Origin: Clostridia bacterium
Lineage (GTDB): Bacteria; Bacillota; Clostridia; Peptostreptococcales; Acidaminobacteraceae
Assembly: GCA_018399635.1 (NCBI GenBank)
Contig: JAGYOH010000015.1
Location: 10,880 to 74,879, forward strand
DNA length: 64,000 nt
Direction of reading: 5' to 3'
Shown here: one piece after another, positions 6,049 through 63,284 of the stretch
How positions within the stretch are numbered: the first letter of the stretch is position 1
How the letters are laid out: each line of letters starts with the position of its first letter
Translations under genes and position numbers: made by a program
The notes under the pieces: model-generated
What the model was told of the DNA's origin: nothing
Seen by the model: the letters and a program-made list of their open reading frames with translations, nothing else
Databases searched by the model: none

Positions 6049-6189
6049 TTATTTATTTTCGCAAGCTTGATTTCCTACGGTGCAGGATGTTTTGCACGCT
6101 GACTGGCAAGACGTCTGACATTCACCGCACCCCATGGTCGACCCGACTCGGTTGTGAGAACCCTTGGACAGTGTTTTGATATGCTTCAT
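6049..6189 (-). CDS. scfA: SCIFF (six-cysteine) ranthipeptide precursor, 46 aa
   Basis: Below the ORF-track size floor and found by hand: MKHIKTLSKGSHNRVGSTMGCGECQTSCQSACKTSCTVGNQACENK. SD AAGGAGGG lies 6 nt upstream. The core GCGECQTSCQSACKTSCTVGNQ.CE is the SCIFF signature as I recall it. Confidence 0.9.
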   Translation of the reverse strand: MKHIKTLSKGSHNRVGSTMGCGECQTSCQSACKTSCTVGNQACENK

Positions 6190-54697: not shown

Positions 54698-55459
54698 ATG
54701 AAAAGCACACTGAAAAAACGTCTCATGGCCGGAGAAGTGGCCATCGGCACCTTTGTCACCAACCCCTCCCCCGATCTGATTGAAATCATCGCCCTGGGGG
54801 GCTTTGATTTCGTGGTCATCGACGCCGAGCACGGGGACCTGGCCATTCACCAGACCAAGGATCTGATACGGGCCGCCGAGCTCCACGGCATGGGGGCCAT
54901 CACCCGGGTCACCGAGAACAGTCCCCCCCTCGTCACCAGGGCCCTCGATGTCGGTGCCCACGGCGTCCAGGTCCCCCAGGTCAACACGGTGGAGGACGCC
55001 CTCAGAGCCCTCAAGGGGGCCAAGTACTTCCCCCTGGGAGAAAGGGGCATCGCCATGCCGAGAAGCGCCGCCTACGGTGACAAGGACCCCATGGCCTACT
55101 TCAAGGAGGCCAATCGGGACACCCTGGTCAGCATCCACATCGAAAACCTGACGGGTTATGACCATCTCGAGGAAATCATTCAAATCGAGGGAATCGACGT
55201 CATTTTCCTGGGTCCCTTCGACATGTCCCAGTCCCTGGGGACCCCGGGTGACATGACCAACCCCCGGCTGCAGGAAATCTCCGAAGGCATCGTGGCCCTC
55301 TGTCAGAAGTACGGCAAGATCGCCGGCACCTTCGTCACCTCGGCGGAGGCCGCCAACAAGAAAATCGACGAAGGCTACCGCTTCATCGGTCTTCACGTCT
55401 TTGACACCTTCATCCTGAAAGCCTCTCAAAGGGAAACAGCCCTCATCAAAAAAGTCTGA
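54698..55459 (+). CDS. HpcH/HpaI-family aldolase (2-keto-3-deoxy-acid aldolase)
   Basis: 253 aa. ...GTFVTNPSPDLIEIIALGGFDFVVIDAEHG...RV......V.RALDVGAHGVQVPQVNT.EDA. Confidence 0.9.
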   Translation: MKSTLKKRLMAGEVAIGTFVTNPSPDLIEIIALGGFDFVVIDAEHGDLAIHQTKDLIRAAELHGMGAITRVTENSPPLVTRALDVGAHGVQVPQVNTVEDALRALKGAKYFPLGERGIAMPRSAAYGDKDPMAYFKEANRDTLVSIHIENLTGYDHLEEIIQIEGIDVIFLGPFDMSQSLGTPGDMTNPRLQEISEGIVALCQKYGKIAGTFVTSAEAANKKIDEGYRFIGLHVFDTFILKASQRETALIKKV

Positions 55460-55484
55460 TTATCAAGGAAACCTCCTCCTAAAA

Positions 55485-55514
55485 AAGCCCTTCCGAGAAT
55501 TTTCGGAAGGGCTT
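55485..55514 (-). terminator. intrinsic terminator after the aldolase/dehydrogenase operon
   Basis: AAGCCCTTCCGA-(6 nt)-TCGGAAGGGCTT, a perfect 12-bp stem. The minus strand is followed by a T6 run. Confidence 0.7.
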
Positions 55515-55566
55515 GAACAGGTCTCCTCGAAAGTTGCAAAAGGAGATTCCTTATAGGGGGGACGCT

Positions 55567-56589
55567 TCAGATCTTGCCCTGGTCTCTGGCAAGGTTGTGG
55601 GCCACTTCAATGATCCAGTCTTCCTGGCCGCCTACGGCCTTTCTCTTGCCCAGTTCAATGATGATGTCCCGGGTATCCACGCCGAAGCGTTCAGAGGCCC
55701 TTTTGGCGTGGAGCATGAAACTGGAGTACACACCGGCATATCCGATGATGAGTGAGTCTGAGTTGAATCGCGGCAATTCGGAGCCTCTGGCCTCGACAAT
55801 GGGCTTGAGCACCTTGTCGCCGGCATCGATGATCTTGTACAAATCCACATTGGTGGGAACGCCGCTCTTGTCCAGGGCGGCGGCAAGCATTTCCGTGGGG
55901 GTGTTGCCCGCTCCCGCACCAAAGCCAATCAGAGACCCGTCCAGGTAGTCCGCACCCGCCTCATAGGCCTTCAAACTGTTGGCCACGGCCACCCCGAGAT
56001 TGTTGTGGGAGTGATGGCCGATGGGGATGTCCAGATTGGCCTTGAGGTAACTGATTTTTTCAAAAACTTCATTGGGCAGCATGGCTCCGGAAGAATCCGT
56101 CATATAGACCACGTCAGCCCCGTAGGAGGCCATTTTTTTCGCCTCTTCGAGGATGACCTCCTTCGAGGCCATATGGGCCATCATCAAGAAACCCACCGTA
56201 AACATCCCCATTGCTTTCGCCGCCTTGATATGCTGCTCCGCCACATCCGCTTCAGTGACATGGGTGGCCACCCGGACGATCTGCGCCCCGAGGGCCTGGG
56301 CCTTCTCTAAATGTTCAATGAGGCCGATTCCGGGAATCAGCAGCACCGCCAGCCTGGACTTCGTCAGCACCGAGGCCACGGCTTCGATGTATTCAAAGTC
56401 GGTATGAAGGCCGAAACCGTAATTGATGGAACTGCCGGTGAGTCCGTCTCCATGGCCGATTTCAATGATATCCACACCGGCATCCTCGAGGGCCCTGGCC
56501 ACGGACTTCATCTCCTCCAAGGTGAACTTATGGGAGACCGAATGGCTGCCGTCTCTCAAGGTGGTATCGGTCATGATCACCCTTCTCAT
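55567..56589 (-). CDS. mhpE: 4-hydroxy-2-oxovalerate aldolase (DmpG/MhpE/BphI type)
   Basis: 340 aa. [10 protein letters not shown]..., HSHNNLG. ATGA overlap with the dehydrogenase gene, as in dmpFG/mhpFE pairs. Confidence 0.93.
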
Positions 56590-57461
56590 GATTTCACCCC
56601 CAATAATTTTTTAGCATATTTTTCTGCGACGGCGACCGCCGCGCTGTTGATGATATCGAGATTTCCCGCATAAATCGGCAGATAATCCCCCAGGCCCTCC
56701 ACTTGGATCATCACGGTAACGATGTCGTCCTTGATGATGGGCTCCAGCAGATAGGTGTAGCCCGGCACATATTCCTTGATTTTTTCCAGCATGGCATCCA
56801 CAGAGGCGCGAATCTTTTCAATGTCCGGATTTTTGACCTTGGCATAAATGGTATTGCGCATGAAAATCGGAGGTTCGGCAGGGTTGAGCACGATGATGAC
56901 CTTGGCTTTGTCTGCTCCTCCCACCTTCTCCAGGGCCATTCTTGTGGTCTCGGTGAACTCATCAATGTTCTGGCGGGTTCCCGGACCGGCGCTTTTGGAA
57001 CTGACCGAGGAGATGACCTCGGCGTATGCCACGTCCGCCGCCTCGTTGATGGCGGCCACGATGGGAACCGTGGCCTGTCCGCCACAGGTGACCATGTTGA
57101 GGTTGTCCTCCTGGTCTATCAGCCTGTCGCTGAGATTGACAGCCGGTACCACATAGGGGCCGATGGCCGCCGGGGTCAGGTCCAGGGTGAAAATCCCCTT
57201 TTCCTTGAGCATGGGCGCATGGAGGGCGTGGGGTCTGGCCCCGGTGGAATCAAAACAGATCTGGATTCCCTCCCGCTTCATCAAGTCATCGATTCCGTTG
57301 ACCGTAGCCTCGATGCCCCGTTCTCTCGCAATGGCGATGCCCTTGGACTCCTGTCTTCCTACTACGTAATCGACTTCGATATAGTCACTTCTGCTCAGTT
57401 TGATGAGCAGGTCCGTCCCGATATTTCCGGGCCCGATGATTGCCGCTTTTATTTTTTCCAT
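56586..57461 (-). CDS. mhpF: acetaldehyde dehydrogenase (acetylating) (DmpF/MhpF/BphJ type)
   Basis: 291 aa. [18 protein letters not shown]..., [10 protein letters not shown] (catalytic Cys). Confidence 0.93.
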
Positions 57462-57497
57462 ATGTTTTCACCTTTTTCTCGTAATGATGGCTGCAGA

Positions 57498-58268
57498 TCA
57501 GATGAATTTCACCTCAACCGTGCCAAGTTCAGTAAAGTCAGCTCTGAAGCGGTCTCCCGCTTCAGCGGTGATGGCCGCAGAAAGCGCCCCGGACAGAATG
57601 ACCTCATCCTTTTTCAGGGCCACACCGAATTCACTCATCTTGTTGGCCAGCCAGGCCACACAATAAGCCGGATCTCCAAGAGCGGCATCGCCTCTGCCTG
57701 CATTGACGAATTCGCCATTTTTGTACAAGGACATCTCGATTTTCTTCAAATCGATATCCCCAGGCTTCACCTGCTTGTCGCCAAGCAGAAAAAGTCCCGA
57801 GGAGGCGTTGTCGGATACCGTATCGATGAGTCCGATTTTCCAGTCCCGAATCCGACTGTCAACGATTTCAAAAGAGGCCAGAACATGGTCAGTCGCCTTC
57901 ATCACGTCCGCCACCGTCACTCCGGGACCCATCAAATCCTCCTTCAAAACGAAGGCGATTTCCGCCTCCACCTTGGGCTGCAGCAGGGCACTGCGGCGGA
58001 TCACACCGCCTTCGATCCGCATGTCGTCGAACAGGTGGCCATAGTCAGGCTGGTCCACTCCGAGCATGGTCTGCATCGCCAGCGAAGTCAGTCCGATTTT
58101 TTTCCCGATGATGCGTTTTCCTTCCTCAAGCTGTCGATTGACATTGTTGAGTTGAATCCCGTAGGCATCCTCCAGGGTGAGGGATTCCCCCATGACGATT
58201 ACCGGTTCCACTGCCACCTTCGTGTGTTGCGCTTCATACAGTTTTTCGCTGATTGTTTTCAAATCCAT
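57498..58268 (-). CDS. 2-keto-4-pentenoate hydratase / 2-oxohept-3-enedioate hydratase family
   Basis: About 256 aa. ...IGKKIGLTS...MQ..LGVDQPDYG.LFD...EAEIAFVL..DL... The ATG at 58268 follows AAAAGGGGTG; the track start at 58286 is TTG. Confidence 0.9.
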   Translation of the reverse strand: MDLKTISEKLYEAQHTKVAVEPVIVMGESLTLEDAYGIQLNNVNRQLEEGKRIIGKKIGLTSLAMQTMLGVDQPDYGHLFDDMRIEGGVIRRSALLQPKVEAEIAFVLKEDLMGPGVTVADVMKATDHVLASFEIVDSRIRDWKIGLIDTVSDNASSGLFLLGDKQVKPGDIDLKKIEMSLYKNGEFVNAGRGDAALGDPAYCVAWLANKMSEFGVALKKDEVILSGALSAAITAEAGDRFRADFTELGTVEVKFI

Positions 58269-58325
58269 TGCGACACCCCTTTTCAAATTTCCTCTCCCCT
58301 GACCGGGTTCACCAATTTTTTCATC

Positions 58326-58343
58326 ATTGCCAAATATCGTTCT
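58326..58343. promoter_or_regulatory. recurrent 18-nt motif, copy A (ATTGCCAAATATCGTTCT)
   Basis: One of four near-identical copies (see 63142, 63187, 63267). It overlaps the spacer/-10 region downstream of a TTGACA (58343-58348, minus strand) upstream of the hydratase operon. Confidence 0.5.
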
Positions 58344-58360
58344 GTCAAATATCCCTCAAA

Positions 58361-58380
58361 TTGCAGACTATTGTCTGCAA
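58361..58380. promoter_or_regulatory. perfect 20-bp palindrome TTGCAGAC-TATT-GTCTGCAA
   Basis: Read directly from the sequence. It lies 3 nt after the IclR stop codon and about 90 nt upstream of the hydratase start. It could be a weak terminator or an operator. Confidence 0.45.
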
Positions 58381-58383
58381 TTT

Positions 58384-59148
58384 TTATCTTAGATAACCGA
58401 TGCGTTTTGATATTTCCAGAGCCGCATCCTTCATTTTCAGGCTCAGCATGGCCATGCGCTCATCGTCCATCCGATCCACGGGACCGGAAACACTGATGGA
58501 GTATTCCACCTTGTTTTCATGGTTGAAAATCGGCGCCCCCACGCAGTTGAGACCGATCACGTTTTCTTCAAGGTCCAGGGCGTAACCCCTTTCCCTGACC
58601 AGTCTGAGCTCCTCAAGGATTTCACGGGGATCGTTTTTCGTGTGTGCCGTATGTTTTTCAGGCGTCCGGGGAATGTGATTCTCCAGGACTTCAAGGGGTT
58701 TGTAGGCGAGAATCGACTTGCCGATCGCCGTACAATAGGCATGATATCTCGTGCCGATGGTGGTGAACATCCTCAGGGACTGGTTGGATTCAACCTTGTC
58801 GATATAGATGATTTCCTTGCCTTCCAGAACCCCCAGATGGATGGTCTCATTGACCTCCTCACAGAGTGCCAGGAGGACCGGTTTCGCCACTTCTCTGATG
58901 TCGATGTTCTTCAGCACCAGACTCCCCAGCTCCACCAGTTTGAGACCCAGCCGGTATTTCTGATTTTCCTTGTTTTGATCGATGAGACCCGCATCCTTCA
59001 TGGTGGTGATGATCCCGTGAAGGGTGCTCTTGTTGATGTCGAGATGCTCTGCGATTTCCGTGAGCTTGAGTTCGGAATTTCTGTCTGAAAAGCAGTTCAA
59101 AACCTTGACCGCACGCTCAATTGATTGGACTCTACCAAAATTTCCCAT
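58384..59148 (-). CDS. IclR-family transcriptional regulator
   Basis: 254 aa. N-terminal wHTH ...VQSIERAVKVLNCF......LKLTEIAEHLDINKSTLHGII.TM plus an IclR effector domain. Confidence 0.92.
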   Translation of the reverse strand: MGNFGRVQSIERAVKVLNCFSDRNSELKLTEIAEHLDINKSTLHGIITTMKDAGLIDQNKENQKYRLGLKLVELGSLVLKNIDIREVAKPVLLALCEEVNETIHLGVLEGKEIIYIDKVESNQSLRMFTTIGTRYHAYCTAIGKSILAYKPLEVLENHIPRTPEKHTAHTKNDPREILEELRLVRERGYALDLEENVIGLNCVGAPIFNHENKVEYSISVSGPVDRMDDERMAMLSLKMKDAALEISKRIGYLR

Positions 59149-59171
59149 TGAAGTACCTCTTTTTTATTTTA

Positions 59172-59199
59172 ATTCTATCACAAACAGAGCCAATCACAA
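59172..59199 (-). promoter_or_regulatory. promoter for the IclR gene
   Basis: Minus strand TTGTGA-16 nt-TAGAAT with an extended TG (TGaTAGAAT), about 24 nt upstream of the ATG. Confidence 0.5.
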
Positions 59200-59309
59200 G
59201 TTCATACTTCAACCGCCGGCAAAAGTCAGTGGACTCTCCTTGCCATCGTGACCTTCATTCCCCGGACTCCGAATGAGTGTCCGAAGAACCGCACCCGCCG
59301 ACGCTTCGG

Positions 59310-59341
59310 CCGGTGGCCAATGGCGGCACCGGTTTTTTTTT
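59310..59341 (+). terminator. strong plus-strand-oriented intrinsic terminator with no plus-strand gene
   Basis: CCGGTGGCC-aat-GGCggCACCGG followed by T9 on the plus strand only. Confidence 0.6.
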
Positions 59342-59370
59342 ACAGGGAAGTCCCCCCCGCTGCAGACAGG

Positions 59371-60189
59371 CTAGGCCAAGAACTCATCAACGATCTTGTT
59401 GAAGGGCTTGTTCTGCTCAATCTGGGTCCAGTGACCGCAGTGACCGAAGACGTGGAGTTGAGAATTGCTGATTTTAGATAACAGTTTGAGGGAGGTTTCC
59501 ATGGGAATGACCACATCATCCCGCCCGTGGATGATCAGGGTGTCATGGTCGATCCGCTCAAGGTCCTCGTCTTTTTGAGCCATGAAGGCCACCCACTGCT
59601 GACGGGGCGCCGGGAACATGGAAGAGAAGGATTCCTGGAATCCCGGTTCAACACTGGCATCGTATCGCATTTTTGCCAGATCGTCGGTGACGATGTCCTT
59701 GTTGGAGACAAAAAGACTCAGCATGCGTTTCATGTTCTCCACCGACGGCTCGTAACCCCAGACATCGTCGAGTCCCTGGGTGATTTCGAAATCAACTCCC
59801 ATGGAACCCATGAGAACCAGTTTTCTGACGCGCTCAGGATAGTTGATGGCCATGGCCAGGGCCAGGGCGCCACCAAAGGAATTGCCGACGATATCCGCTT
59901 TGTCAATCGCCATGGCGTCCATGAAATCCACGGTCTGCTTCACCCAGGTGTGCATGTCCAGGGTAAGCCCTTCGGGTCGGTCCGTATAACCGAAACCCAC
60001 CATGTCCGGGGCCAGCACTCTTCTTTTTTGAGCCAGTTCCGGAATCACCAGCCGCCAGTTGGCCCAGGCGGTGACACCGGGTCCCGAACCATGAATCAAG
60101 AGTACGGGAAAACCCTCTCCTTCGTCATGGTAGTTGGTGTGGTAATGACCGGTTTTGATGGTTTTTGCAATTTCTGGTTTTGTCGTCAT
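59371..60189 (-). CDS. alpha/beta hydrolase, meta-cleavage-product (C-C bond) hydrolase type (MhpC/BphD-like)
   Basis: ...LLIHGSGPGVTAWANWRLVIPELA...RVLAPDMVGFGYTD..., nucleophile elbow GNSFGG, C-terminal ...GHCGHWTQIEQ. The ATG at 60189 is 5 nt after AAGGAGG and 17 nt after the dctM stop. Confidence 0.88.
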   Translation of the reverse strand: MTTKPEIAKTIKTGHYHTNYHDEGEGFPVLLIHGSGPGVTAWANWRLVIPELAQKRRVLAPDMVGFGYTDRPEGLTLDMHTWVKQTVDFMDAMAIDKADIVGNSFGGALALAMAINYPERVRKLVLMGSMGVDFEITQGLDDVWGYEPSVENMKRMLSLFVSNKDIVTDDLAKMRYDASVEPGFQESFSSMFPAPRQQWVAFMAQKDEDLERIDHDTLIIHGRDDVVIPMETSLKLLSKISNSQLHVFGHCGHWTQIEQNKPFNKIVDEFLA

Positions 60190-60206
60190 ACTGTCCTCCT
60201 TAAATT

Positions 60207-61517
60207 CTAAACGATCCACATGACCGTCTGGGGTATGAAAGTGATAATCATCAAGGCAGCGATCAAGGCAATCAAAAAGGGAACGGTTTCCCTGGTGATG
60301 TCCTGGATTCCCACATCAAAGACCCTGGCGGAAGTGAAGAGGGTGATGCCGAAGGGAGGGGTCATCATGCCGATGGCCAGGTTGGTGGCCAGGATGATGC
60401 CGAAGTGGACCGGATCCACCCCCAGTGTCAAGGCGATGGGCAGGGCGATGGGTACCAGGATATACTGGATTGACGCGGATTCCATGAACATGCCGGCAAT
60501 CAACACCACGATATTCAAGGCCAGAAGGATGAGAATCCTGCTGTCGGTGAGGTCCAGTACTGAAGCCAGTATGGTCTGGGGAATCTTGACATAGACCATG
60601 ACCCAGGTGAAGAGAGCCGCCGACGCCATGATGATCATGATGGCCGCCGTTGATAAGGCCGAACCTAGAAAAATGCCAGGCAGGTCCCGCCATTTCATTT
60701 CCCTGTAGATATAGATGCCGATAAAAACCGAGTAGACCACTGCGATGACGGCAGATTCCGTCGGAGTAAAGATCCCGGCAAAGACACCCCCCACGATGAT
60801 GACCGGCGTACCCAGGGCCCACAGTGAATCGACCACATATTTGAGTCCCCTCAGCTTGCTTTCTTCCAGGGCTTCGACATTGCCCTCCAGCACGACTTGG
60901 CCGCTTTCAATCAAGGCCTGCTGTGCTTTGTAATTTCTTTTTTTGGCAATCAGAACCGTGGGAATCACCAGGGCGGCGCCGACGATGAATCCGGCCGGCA
61001 GGCCCACCTTGTAAAGATCCGCCACAGACACCTTGGCCAGGACGGCATAGATGATGAAGGCGATGCTTGGCGGAATGATGATGCCGATGGGACTTGAAGC
61101 GGCTATGACCGTCGCACTGAAACCTTTTGAATAGCCGGCTCTGAGCATCCCGGCCGTCATGACACTGCCGATGGCGGCGGCGGTGGCAATGGCGCTTCCT
61201 GATATGGCTGCAAAAAACATGCTGGCGATGATGGCCACCACCCCCATGCCTCCATGAATATTCCCCACCATGATCCTGGCCATGTTGACGATTCTCTTGG
61301 CGATTCCGCCCCGGTTCATCAAATCCCCGGCAAGGATGAAAAAGGGAACAGCCAGCAGGGCGGCTGAATCAATGCCGGCGAAAAGCTTCTGGATGACCAC
61401 GACGGTCTTGATGTCATTGGCGAACATGAAAATCAGAGAGGACAACCCCAGGGCCACGACGATGGGGGCCCCGATGACCAGCAGTCCCAAAGCGCTTGTG
61501 AATAGCAGAGCTCCCAT
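60207..61517 (-). CDS. dctM: TRAP transporter large permease subunit
   Basis: 436 aa, a polytopic DctM-type sequence. Confidence 0.93.
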   Translation of the reverse strand: MGALLFTSALGLLVIGAPIVVALGLSSLIFMFANDIKTVVVIQKLFAGIDSAALLAVPFFILAGDLMNRGGIAKRIVNMARIMVGNIHGGMGVVAIIASMFFAAISGSAIATAAAIGSVMTAGMLRAGYSKGFSATVIAASSPIGIIIPPSIAFIIYAVLAKVSVADLYKVGLPAGFIVGAALVIPTVLIAKKRNYKAQQALIESGQVVLEGNVEALEESKLRGLKYVVDSLWALGTPVIIVGGVFAGIFTPTESAVIAVVYSVFIGIYIYREMKWRDLPGIFLGSALSTAAIMIIMASAALFTWVMVYVKIPQTILASVLDLTDSRILILLALNIVVLIAGMFMESASIQYILVPIALPIALTLGVDPVHFGIILATNLAIGMMTPPFGITLFTSARVFDVGIQDITRETVPFLIALIAALMIITFIPQTVMWIV

Positions 61518-62000
61518 TTATACCGCCTCCCGATCGAAAATGACATTGAGAATGAAAACCAGGGTCTGAAACACCAGAATCGTAAAGGCCACGGGGAAAA
61601 TCCCGTAGACCAGGTACATGGGCATCCGCATGTTGGTGGAGACCTGGGTCCCCGCCAGGGCCATCATGTCAAAGCCGATGAAGATGGTGATTCCAAAAAA
61701 TGTCGCTGTGAGCAACTGCTGCAAAATGATGAGCCATTTTTTCAATTTCGGTGAAATCATCACCTCCATGGCGCTGACGTTGATATGCTTGTTCTTTCTG
61801 GCGAGCACCGCAGAGCCCACCATGACCAGGGCGATATTGGTATATCGTGTCAGTTCCTCGGTCCAGTGGATGCCTGACTGAAACACATACCTTAGAACCA
61901 CTTGGGCAAAATAGGTCACACTCATCAAGGCGAAGGCGAAGACTAGAAACCAACCGCTGACCTTGGTGACGCCATCACTGATTTTGTTCAAAGTGTCCAT
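61518..62000 (-). CDS. dctQ: TRAP transporter small permease subunit
   Basis: The ATG at 62000 gives MDTLNKISDGVTKVSGWFLVFAFALMSVTYFAQVVLRYVF...W.EEL.RY, a 4-TM DctQ pattern. The track's 56-aa extension overlaps dctP. Confidence 0.85.
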   Translation of the reverse strand: MDTLNKISDGVTKVSGWFLVFAFALMSVTYFAQVVLRYVFQSGIHWTEELTRYTNIALVMVGSAVLARKNKHINVSAMEVMISPKLKKWLIILQQLLTATFFGITIFIGFDMMALAGTQVSTNMRMPMYLVYGIFPVAFTILVFQTLVFILNVIFDREAV

Positions 62001-62067
62001 AAATAATCTCCTTTTACACATTATGAGATTAAAAGGGGTGAAATCACCCCTTTCATCTGTCTGCCCC

Positions 62068-63093
62068 TTAATATAGTGCTTTGATCGCTTCCAGGAAATA
62101 GCCGTCGTTGTCCTCAAGGAACTTGTCATAGACCGGGGTGACCAGGGCTTCGAATTCCTTTGGATCATTCACGGCATTGAATTCCATGCCCAGGGATTCC
62201 AGTTCGGCCTTGGCCTTGGCTTCATCATCCTTCTGAACCTTGCCCAAGGCCACGGCGGCATCCAGACCCGCCGTCCTGAACAAGTCCTGGTCCTCGGCGC
62301 TCATCCCCTCCAGCAGGTCCTTGTTCATCTGCAGGGCGGCAAAGGCAAAGAAATGACCTGTTTCCGAGACATACTTCTGGACTTCGTTGATCTTGTAGTC
62401 ACGGGTGGTGACGATGGTGTTTTCATGGGCGTCGATAGTCCCCTGCTGCAGGGCGGTGAACACCTCGCTCCATGCCATGGCCTGGGTGTTGGCTCCCAGG
62501 GCTTTGAAGGTGTCGATGTAGATTTCACTTTCAGCCACCCGGATTTTCAAGTTTTCCAGATCCGCCGGGCTGTAGACGGGCTTGACGTTGCTGGTGAGAT
62601 GTCTGAATCCCCGGGGCATGAAGGACAGCGTGGTCATGCCGACTTCATCTGACAGGGCGTAGAATTCCTTGGAAAGGTCCGAGGCCAGGAACTTTTCAAC
62701 ATGTTCCCAGTCCAGGAACAGGTAGGGAAGATCCTGTACTGCGGCGGCCGGTACGAACTGGTTGATGTCCGAGGCGGTGATGATGGTCAGTTCAACGTTG
62801 CCGACCTGCAGGGACTCCATGAGCTCTCGGTCAACCCCCAGTTGTCCGGCGGGATAGATGTCAATCTCGTATTTGCCGCCTGACCGCTCCTCCACCAGTC
62901 TCTTGAACTCATGAGCAAAATTGTCGTAGGCCGTATCGGGGGCCGCAATGTGACCGAGTTTCATCACGATGGGTTCCTGGGTGTCCGACCCGGCGCCGCC
63001 ATCTGATGCCGCAGGCTCAGGGGTGCTGGCACAGGCCGTGAAAAGCAGGACCATGACCAGCATCAGACCAACCACTCTTAAACTTTTTTTCAT
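62068..63093 (-). CDS. dctP: TRAP transporter substrate-binding protein (DctP family), lipoprotein
   Basis: The ATG at 63093, 8 nt after GAGGAGGG, gives MKKSLRVVGLMLVMVLLFTAC (lipobox), then a DctP-type domain. Confidence 0.9.
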   Translation of the reverse strand: MKKSLRVVGLMLVMVLLFTACASTPEPAASDGGAGSDTQEPIVMKLGHIAAPDTAYDNFAHEFKRLVEERSGGKYEIDIYPAGQLGVDRELMESLQVGNVELTIITASDINQFVPAAAVQDLPYLFLDWEHVEKFLASDLSKEFYALSDEVGMTTLSFMPRGFRHLTSNVKPVYSPADLENLKIRVAESEIYIDTFKALGANTQAMAWSEVFTALQQGTIDAHENTIVTTRDYKINEVQKYVSETGHFFAFAALQMNKDLLEGMSAEDQDLFRTAGLDAAVALGKVQKDDEAKAKAELESLGMEFNAVNDPKEFEALVTPVYDKFLEDNDGYFLEAIKALY

Positions 63094-63141: not shown

Positions 63142-63159
63142 CATTGCCAAACTATGTTC
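63142..63159. promoter_or_regulatory. recurrent 18-nt motif, copy B (ATTGCCAAACTATGTTCT)
   Basis: Located in the dctP 5' UTR region. Confidence 0.5.
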
Positions 63160-63266: not shown

Positions 63267-63284
63267 TATTGCCAAATCATGTTC
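63267..63284. promoter_or_regulatory. recurrent 18-nt motif, copy C (ATTGCCAAATCATGTTCT)
   Basis: Located 24 nt upstream of the dctP -35 element. Confidence 0.5.

Follow-up and report, generated by a model that had tools for sequence, protein, structure and literature searches.

What could a strict anaerobe do with only the later steps of catechol meta-cleavage when nothing beside them could open an aromatic ring? The question is raised by a gene cluster at positions 54,698 to 63,093 of a 64,000-nucleotide stretch of the Clostridia bacterium assembly GCA_018399635.1 (the whole stretch is hereafter called the window), where enzymes that normally act after ring cleavage lie next to a tripartite ATP-independent periplasmic (TRAP) transporter and an IclR-family regulator. 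We propose that the cluster is a self-contained, IclR-controlled catabolic unit, in which a high-affinity importer replaces the oxygen-dependent front end of the meta-cleavage pathway. Because copies of this package are found in anaerobes belonging to three phyla, these organisms probably feed on ring-opened products that they do not make themselves.

The unit consists of eight genes, all on the reverse strand. Its three-part TRAP transporter is complete, with contiguous P, Q and M genes whose matches to TIGR00787, PF04290 and TIGR00786 are all over the cut-off: dctP (62068..63093) codes for the solute-binding lipoprotein (PF03480, 255 bits; TIGR00787, 207 bits versus a cut-off of 175), dctQ (61518..62000) for the small membrane subunit (PF04290, 94.7 bits), and dctM (60207..61517), whose start abuts the dctQ stop, for the large permease (TIGR00786, 402 bits with a cut-off of 268; PF06808, 371 bits). 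The open reading frame of dctP reaches 63120, but translation almost certainly begins with the ATG at 63093, as judged from the GAGGAGG ribosome-binding site preceding it, the lipoprotein-type N-terminal signal ending in LFTAC, and the public protein collection, where the gene is called as 341 aa, beginning at M10 of the frame. The gene of a cytoplasmic meta-cleavage product (MCP) C-C hydrolase of the CumD/DmpD/XylF/TodF type follows at 59371..60189 (open reading frame 59371-60219), with its ATG at 60189, 17 nt past the dctM stop. Next come iclR (58384..59148; PF01614, 183 bits; PF09339), which has its own promoter (TTGTGA-16-TAGAAT at 59199-59172), and the gene of a 2-oxopent-4-enoate (2-hydroxypenta-2,4-dienoate) hydratase (57498..58286), for which TIGR03220 (dmpE) is the best match at 314 bits and HpaH and MhpD the next-best profiles at ~242 bits. 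The last two genes, overlapping by the 4 nt ATGA, are dmpF (56586..57461; TIGR03215, 410 bits with a cut-off of 282), coding for an acetylating acetaldehyde dehydrogenase, and dmpG (55567..56589; TIGR03217, 473 bits with a cut-off of 286), coding for a 4-hydroxy-2-oxovalerate aldolase with the DmpG communication domain PF07836. Beyond dctP lies an M23 peptidase gene that ends in a strong terminator with a 12-bp stem, and after this terminator comes the dctP promoter (TTTACA-17-TAATAT, 63244-63216). Based on these terminator and promoter positions, three transcription units are predicted: dctPQM-hydrolase, iclR and hydratase-dmpFG. The open-reading-frame table and the profile searches thus recovered every gene named in the initial annotation of this DNA, along with the 17-nt spacing between dctM and the hydrolase gene, the ATGA coupling of dmpF and dmpG, and the M23 peptidase.

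The enzymes are those of the meta-cleavage lower pathway, and the following route may be drawn from them. The lipoprotein DctP would capture an extracellular 2-oxo/2-enol monocarboxylate, which DctQM would carry inward; the likely ligand would be a 2-hydroxy-6-oxo-2,4-dienoate with a small C6 group, e.g., 2-hydroxymuconic semialdehyde or 2-hydroxy-6-oxohepta-2,4-dienoate. In the cytoplasm, the hydrolase would cut the C5-C6 bond to give formate or acetate plus 2-hydroxypenta-2,4-dienoate, which the hydratase would convert to 4-hydroxy-2-oxovalerate. DmpG would then yield pyruvate and acetaldehyde, and DmpF would turn the acetaldehyde into acetyl-CoA, with NADH as the other product. None of these steps needs oxygen, and therefore a fermenter could gain ATP from the products.

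The first line of evidence is that the arrangement is not peculiar to one contig. In a scan of species-representative genomes, relatives of the hydrolase turned up at 69 loci, and all window proteins were mapped onto these. The whole eight-gene unit (IclR, hydrolase, hydratase, DmpF, DmpG and DctPQM) recurs in about 20 anaerobe genomes belonging to Bacillota, Spirochaetota and Actinomycetota (Propionibacteriaceae), which is more than chance. The eight reading frames are intact across these genomes at 50-90% identity, and every full copy of the module has an IclR gene. Among Bacillota, the full unit was found in ML8_F1, a member of the same genus (87%), a Clostridiales metagenome-assembled genome (MAG; 80%), a Tissierellaceae MAG (72%) and Sedimentibacter hydroxybenzoicus DSM 7310 (73%), and among Spirochaetota in Rectinema subterraneum, several Rectinemataceae and Treponemataceae, and Sphaerochaetaceae (61-65%). 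Searching with DctP added a Propionibacteriaceae locus (Actinomycetota), Clostridiales bacterium 38_11 and a further contig (L080), whose hydrolase is nearest to the spirochaete ones (72% to Rectinema); in the loci retrieved this way, DctP orthologues of only 53-57% identity remain in the same unit. The co-inheritance of the TRAP genes with the enzymes across three phyla strengthens the view that the substrate is imported. Within 10 kb of any anaerobe copy there is no gene for a catechol dioxygenase, a semialdehyde dehydrogenase or a phenol hydroxylase; the proteobacterial homologues (58-64% identity) sit mostly in dmp-type operons in which such genes are present. We also inspected by eye the translations flanking the module at 13 anaerobe loci. 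They differ in every lineage (apparent GntR, DapA-like, aminotransferase, glycosyltransferase, FAD oxidase, TetR and similar proteins), with no shared extra enzyme and no oxygenase. Orthologues of the hydrolase are present in 4 of the 36 other genomes of the window organism's family and in 1 of 301 sampled Spirochaetota (the seed genome alone), where the unit is therefore rare and lineage-restricted, and this patchy spread fits lateral transfer of an accessory unit.

The second line of evidence comes from the hydrolase itself, which had initially been described as an MhpC/BphD-type C-C hydrolase and does fall inside the MCP hydrolase clade. Its best match among all PDB sequences is CumD (2d0d, 1iun), at 367 bits and gap-free over 266 residues; the same search gave about 135-160 bits for CarC, BphD, MhpC and HsaD and ~80 bits for epoxide hydrolase and esterases, and PcaD scored 82 bits in NCBIfam. 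The catalytic triad S114 (in GNSFGG), D235 and H263 aligns with the CumD triad and is invariant in 62 aligned family members. Likewise invariant are N54, N113, F170, R185, C261 and W264, which we take to be the counterparts of BphD Asn51, Asn111, Phe175, Arg190, Cys263 and Trp266, involved in dienoate binding and ketonisation; the spacing of 15 between the Phe and the Arg is the same as in BphD and MhpC. When 67 hydrolases were placed in a maximum-likelihood tree, the TRAP-linked sequences of anaerobes, 18 in all, came out as one clade (98 in the Shimodaira-Hasegawa-like approximate likelihood ratio test) inside the CumD-family sequences. This clade divides into a Bacillota and a Spirochaetota sub-clade, and its sister group (moderate support, 82) is made up of beta- and gammaproteobacterial DmpD/XylF enzymes encoded beside catechol 2,3-dioxygenase. 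By sequence, the window protein is a true member of the CumD/DmpD-type MCP hydrolase family, and the CumD score, the family residues and the tree placement together speak against an esterase or lactonase. Two cases depart from the usual arrangement. One genome of the window organism's family (G035) has two copies of the clade hydrolase (C33:66037-66843, 67%; C11:291336-292151, 60%), which suggests duplication or repeated acquisition of the unit. On a 3.6-kb contig of an uncultured Tissierella (L009 1694-3576), the clade hydrolase is preceded not by dctM but by a DctP-family gene with 28% identity to that of the window, possibly a version of the unit that works with another binding protein.

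Four positions in the 62-member alignment set the TRAP-linked clade apart from all other aligned members, namely M140, V171, K174 and M184 of the window protein, which correspond to A129, A160, R163 and L173 of CumD. This signature was found again in all three loci retrieved independently via DctP, including the actinobacterial one, which is an out-of-sample confirmation. Position 129 of CumD differs between the two CumD PDB sequences, being the altered site of the engineered variant 2d0d, while V171 and M184 neighbour the dienoate-binding Phe and Arg. The bulkier side chains of the signature suggest a narrower pocket and, with it, a substrate with a small C6 substituent. The same four private substitutions, which lie around the Phe and Arg that bind the dienoate and at the A129 specificity site of CumD, may also be read as a sign that the hydrolase was recruited for a different bond. 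Rather than a product of aromatic ring fission, the substrate would then be a compound arising from sugar acids or amino acids, either an aliphatic 2-oxo-enoate or a 4-hydroxy-2-oxo acid in ester or lactone form. We consider this unlikely. In its favour, esterase activity is known as a side reaction of MCP hydrolases; 4i3f (CCSP0084), second among the distinct PDB proteins matched, was deposited as a 'serine hydrolase'; and the module is adjoined by a sugar-acid-type HpcH-family aldolase in two lineages and by a GntR-HpcH-TRAP-DapA unit in Treponemataceae. However, all residues for dienoate C-C cleavage are kept under evident purifying selection in three phyla, the 58-64% identity mentioned above is to DmpD/XylF orthologues in working dmp operons, and the hydratase, which is strictly co-inherited, has a sensible role only where 2-hydroxypenta-2,4-dienoate is what the hydrolase sets free.

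Clues to the imported compound can also be drawn from the transporter. The AlphaFold2 model of DctP (predicted local distance difference test score of 90) and its sequence find their best PDB matches in 4nq8, 4p9k/4pak, 4pdh/4pdd and 4xeq. The ligands of these individual entries are presumably pantoate or erythronate. As candidates for the carboxylate-clamping arginines of such binding proteins, R164 and R185 of DctP (341-aa numbering) are invariant in 32 homologues, and their spacing of 21 is that of Arg152/Arg173 in PMC11668362, the two pairs being compared by spacing. More is learned from the nearest DctP paralogues outside the module, which have 42-44% identity. In two Bacillota MAGs (L081 8001-15664 and L082 8001-15805), the TRAP set is followed by genes for a four-subunit 2-oxoacid:ferredoxin oxidoreductase and for proteins of the acetate/butyrate-kinase and PTA/PTB families, with a divergent IclR gene in addition at L081; this looks like a compact operon for importing a 2-oxo acid and fermenting it to ATP. 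Another DctP paralogue adjoins a ketopantoate reductase-family (ApbA) gene. On the basis of these contexts, 2-oxoacid oxidoreductase or ApbA, the DctP branch appears to handle 2-oxo or 2-hydroxy monocarboxylates, a class into which 2-hydroxy-6-oxo-2,4-dienoate and its keto tautomer both fall.

The initial annotation had noted that the window lacks an extradiol dioxygenase, a hydroxylase and a dehydrogenase. This was borne out for dioxygenases, hydroxylases and semialdehyde dehydrogenases, and for these it holds likewise for the assembly (2.36 Mb in 36 contigs, 95.55% complete). Profile searches combined with tblastn found no two-domain extradiol dioxygenase in either the window or the assembly. 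Two catechol 2,3-dioxygenases from the loci of aerobic relatives matched nothing real in the host's own genome when used as tblastn queries, and as a positive control the same two queries match 20 aerobic loci. A Rieske oxygenase alpha subunit is likewise absent from the assembly, as are oxidases of the cytochrome bd and haem-copper types, and none of the four other module-bearing genomes tested for terminal oxidases has one. Matches to PF01494 were rejected as FAD aromatic hydroxylases, as only profile positions 3-62, the dinucleotide-binding motif, align. Semialdehyde dehydrogenase finds just one match in the host's genome, a generic aldehyde dehydrogenase that is encoded on another contig and is 35% identical. 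As for the rest of a dehydrogenative branch, a second hydratase/decarboxylase paralogue, which the aerobic loci do have, is missing from those of the anaerobes (no search was made for tautomerase). The SCIFF peptide gene that had been pointed to as a hallmark of anaerobic life was found near window position 6129.

We scanned the genome, with up to 2 mismatches, for an 18-nt motif (GAACRTNNTTTGGCAATR) that is a putative IclR operator. In the whole 2.36-Mb assembly it has three matches, all on the reverse strand at the dctP and hydratase promoters of the cluster: GAACATGATTTGGCAATA (63267..63284) upstream of the dctP promoter, GAACATAGTTTGGCAATG (63142..63159) between this promoter and the start codon, and GAACGATATTTGGCAATG (58325..58342) upstream of the hydratase-dmpFG operon. 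Equivalent sites are present at the same places in two relatives (L005 and L006), and a variant form in two others (L007 and L008). If the motif is indeed the IclR operator, its restriction to the cluster would mean that no upper-pathway genes elsewhere in the assembly share the regulator; within the assembled 95.5%, there is no candidate operator outside the cluster. Two further elements were seen around iclR. At 59186-59203, a degenerate operator copy with one extra base (GAACTTGTGATTGGCTCT) overlaps the -35 element of the iclR promoter, hinting at autoregulation. At 58358-58383, 3 nt after the iclR stop and just upstream of the hydratase operator, lies a perfect palindrome, AAATTGCAGAC-TATT-GTCTGCAATTT, which scores as a terminator on the plus strand only; it may end iclR transcription leakily or be one more site bound by a protein.

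These searches bear on another explanation, in which the TRAP transporter imports an intact aromatic or hydroaromatic acid and an unrecognised ring-opening enzyme encoded elsewhere, such as a LigB-family protein, a small VOC protein or a novel oxygen-independent enzyme, makes the hydrolase substrate inside the cell. We hold this to be decidedly unlikely. As Lucey and Leadbetter are said to have described in 2014, Treponema primitia, a so-called anaerobe, uses trace oxygen with a catechol 2,3-dioxygenase, which would be a precedent. Small VOC proteins (PF00903) are encoded in the host's genome and in all five other module genomes examined, but every one is single-domain (three proteins of 121-141 aa in the host's assembly; 121-156 aa overall), and we rejected them as ring-opening dioxygenases. 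LigB-family domains (PF02900) are found in the host's genome and in four of the five others, but the only one in the host's assembly belongs to a 470-aa LigB-AMMECR1 fusion (G000:C6:64991-66403; L004 1486-2898), directly followed by a radical S-adenosylmethionine (SAM) gene. We take this to be the AmmeMemoRadiSam-type arrangement that is widespread in anaerobes. With this non-catabolic context, and with one module genome (G066) having no LigB match, the LigB protein was likewise rejected as a hidden dioxygenase. Similar LigB-containing frames of 447-468 aa were seen in the Tissierellaceae and Sedimentibacter genomes. Also against this explanation, the operator-like motif has no copy outside the cluster, the module flanks differ per lineage with no common extra gene, and the transporter paralogues lie in 2-oxoacid and ApbA contexts, not near aromatic-acid genes.

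Four proteins of the unit have also been detected in a cultured host. When Rectinema cohabitans HM was grown without oxygen on glucose plus yeast extract, its proteome (Dong et al. 2018; PMC6052044, Table S2) included the orthologues of DctP (SPBIB_v1_200016, 7 peptides), DmpF (SPBIB_v1_200018, 4 peptides), the hydrolase (SPBIB_v1_200020, annotated todF, 5 peptides) and IclR (SPBIB_v1_200021, 14 peptides). The genes are therefore translated in a strict anaerobe in culture, at basal level. That paper does not discuss the unit. Its supplementary files 5 and 7 appear to enter this cytoplasmic hydrolase (SPBIB_v1_200020) under both S33 peptidases and CE1 carbohydrate esterases; the counts concerned were seemingly intended as evidence that necromass is hydrolysed outside the cell. 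That the unit is all that is left of an aerobic meta pathway, acquired horizontally and now decaying, its dioxygenase lost and its function gone, is scarcely credible, because, while the distribution is patchy (4 of 36 other family genomes, 1 of 301 sampled Spirochaetota) and the nearest outgroup is proteobacterial and dioxygenase-linked, the eight frames are intact in about 20 genomes, the operator-like sites are conserved in relatives, the TRAP set co-evolves with the enzymes, and the proteins are detected in R. cohabitans.

We thus return to the reading in which the cell takes up a pre-formed 2-hydroxy-6-oxo-2,4-dienoate and turns it into pyruvate and acetyl-CoA, which we regard as moderately likely overall. 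The initial annotation had already proposed such import, and had taken it to amount to cross-feeding on the ring-fission products of other organisms. That proposal is supported in part. It was not refuted by the placement of the hydrolase, nor by the search for a dioxygenase or upper-pathway genes under the same regulator elsewhere in the 95.5%-complete genome, and the import has gained from the co-inheritance of the TRAP genes and the 2-oxoacid/ApbA contexts of the DctP paralogues. The ligand and its origin in other organisms are what we infer. As for that origin, leakage from oxygen-using neighbours at oxic-anoxic interfaces is possible, at a little less than an even chance, and the ligand may otherwise come from some anoxic source. 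A bolder view, quite unlikely in our assessment, is that strictly anoxic habitats have a steady oxygen-independent source of 2-hydroxy-6-oxo-2,4-dienoate-type acids, for which the TRAP module would be a salvage pathway in at least three phyla; an anaerobic ring-opening reaction or a non-aromatic route would supply the compound, and the M140/V171/K174/M184 pocket would be tuned to it.

Several points weigh against a ring-fission dienoate as the imported compound. Its import and hydrolysis are predictions from genes. The 314 bits of the hydratase are less than the equivalog cut-off of 408.8 for dmpE (TIGR03220), the clade-private pocket changes mean that the substrate may differ from classical ring-fission products, and a genome 95.5% complete leaves room for one undetected gene. 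Several hosts come from strictly anoxic places (methanogenic alkane cultures, the deep subsurface and digesters). Ring-fission dienoates are chemically labile, and we know of no source of them in strictly anoxic habitats. Among IseP homologues, a set that includes 4XEQ, closed structures hold pantoate or erythronate that co-purified with the proteins, although these may not be the native ligands (PMC11668362). Finally, the module proteins of R. cohabitans were at a low basal level, and they are not among the spirochaete proteins listed for the naphthalene enrichment (PMC6052044, supplementary file 4, Table S3), which is a mild argument against the substrate being made in that strictly anoxic culture.

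One neighbour of the unit had been included in the cluster initially, and its membership is not supported. This gene, coding for an HpcH/HpaI-family class II aldolase, lies at 54698..55459 on the forward strand, convergent to the unit (PF03328, 103 bits; best NCBIfam match HpaI at 144 bits, well under the cut-off of 369). It has no operator-like site ahead of it, and among the Bacillota lineages examined it is adjacent to the module in just two (L005 and, with 43% identity, L008); it is probably outside the functional unit. In Treponemataceae/Rectinemataceae (L020 3425-8884, also L023 and L037), a divergent unit abuts the module iclR; inspection by eye suggests a GntR regulator, a DapA-like lyase, an HpcH-family aldolase and a second TRAP set, which may form a separate keto-deoxy-acid route.

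Two database labels among the loci deserve comment. The contig JQDQ01000088.1 (L022), labelled Smithella sp. SCADC, has a hydrolase identical to that of Rectinema subterraneum (L021), and all its module genes show the same identities to the window as those of Rectinema; it is thus almost certainly a mis-binned spirochaete contig. 'Delta proteobacterium ML8_F1' (LQBE01000016.1; L005/G006) is of the same genus as the window genome and shares with it the M23, module, HpcH, Tag and TauE genes at 74-93% identity. Its deltaproteobacterial label looks wrong because the window genome is Clostridia-like, with a SCIFF peptide and a Gram-positive-type lipoprotein as the solute-binding protein.

Literature searches found no paper describing a TRAP-linked meta-cleavage unit. 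While the enzymes are familiar, the architecture, with an importer and IclR in place of oxygenases, is new, as are the mobile package fixed in strict anaerobes of three phyla and the private signature of the hydrolase. In textbooks, meta-cleavage is seen as a private, intracellular and oxygen-dependent process. The unit implies instead that ring-fission products, or close analogues of them, circulate as shared metabolites that benefit strict fermenters, including satellite spirochaetes and the Clostridia of hydrocarbon-degrading consortia, digesters and sediments. If this is true, there is an extra link in carbon flow at oxic-anoxic boundaries, and an explanation would be at hand for some of the meta-pathway genes seen in metagenomes of anaerobes, frequently interpreted as signs of aerobic aromatic degradation. 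The idea is directly testable because hosts are in culture, namely Rectinema cohabitans HM, R. subterraneum SURF-ANA1 and Sedimentibacter hydroxybenzoicus DSM 7310.

Among known systems, the closest is the hydrolytic branch of the dmp/xyl/tod pathways of aerobic Pseudomonadota (DmpD/XylF/TodF, DmpE, DmpG and DmpF), with which the unit has in common the four enzyme families, the reaction order and the coupled dmpF-dmpG genes. The window hydrolase is 58-64% identical to its counterparts there, and the hydratase, DmpF and DmpG 45-54% (45-51% for the hydratase). In contrast to these pathways, the unit has no catechol 2,3-dioxygenase, phenol/toluene hydroxylase, semialdehyde dehydrogenase or decarboxylase, whether close by or elsewhere in the genome, a TRAP importer and IclR standing in their place, and its tested hosts have no terminal oxidases. 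At the protein level, the best solved relative of the hydrolase is CumD (1iun, 2d0d), the 2-hydroxy-6-oxo-7-methylocta-2,4-dienoate hydrolase of Pseudomonas fluorescens IP01, whose triad and dienoate-binding residues are identical, but which differs at the four signature positions (A129, A160, R163 and L173, as against M, V, K and M in the TRAP-linked clade). The cassette of Treponema primitia reportedly also consists of meta-pathway genes of apparent proteobacterial ancestry in a fermentative, oxygen-sensitive lineage; it is said to keep its catechol 2,3-dioxygenase and to act on catechol micro-oxically, whereas the unit has an importer and no dioxygenase. Lastly, the operons of TRAP, 2-oxoacid:ferredoxin oxidoreductase, kinase and phosphotransacylase genes in the two Bacillota MAGs (L081, which has an IclR gene as well, and L082) appear to follow the same logic, in which a 2-oxo acid is imported and converted to acyl-CoA and ATP, but their chemistry is oxidative decarboxylation, whereas that of the unit would be C-C hydrolysis, hydration and aldol cleavage.

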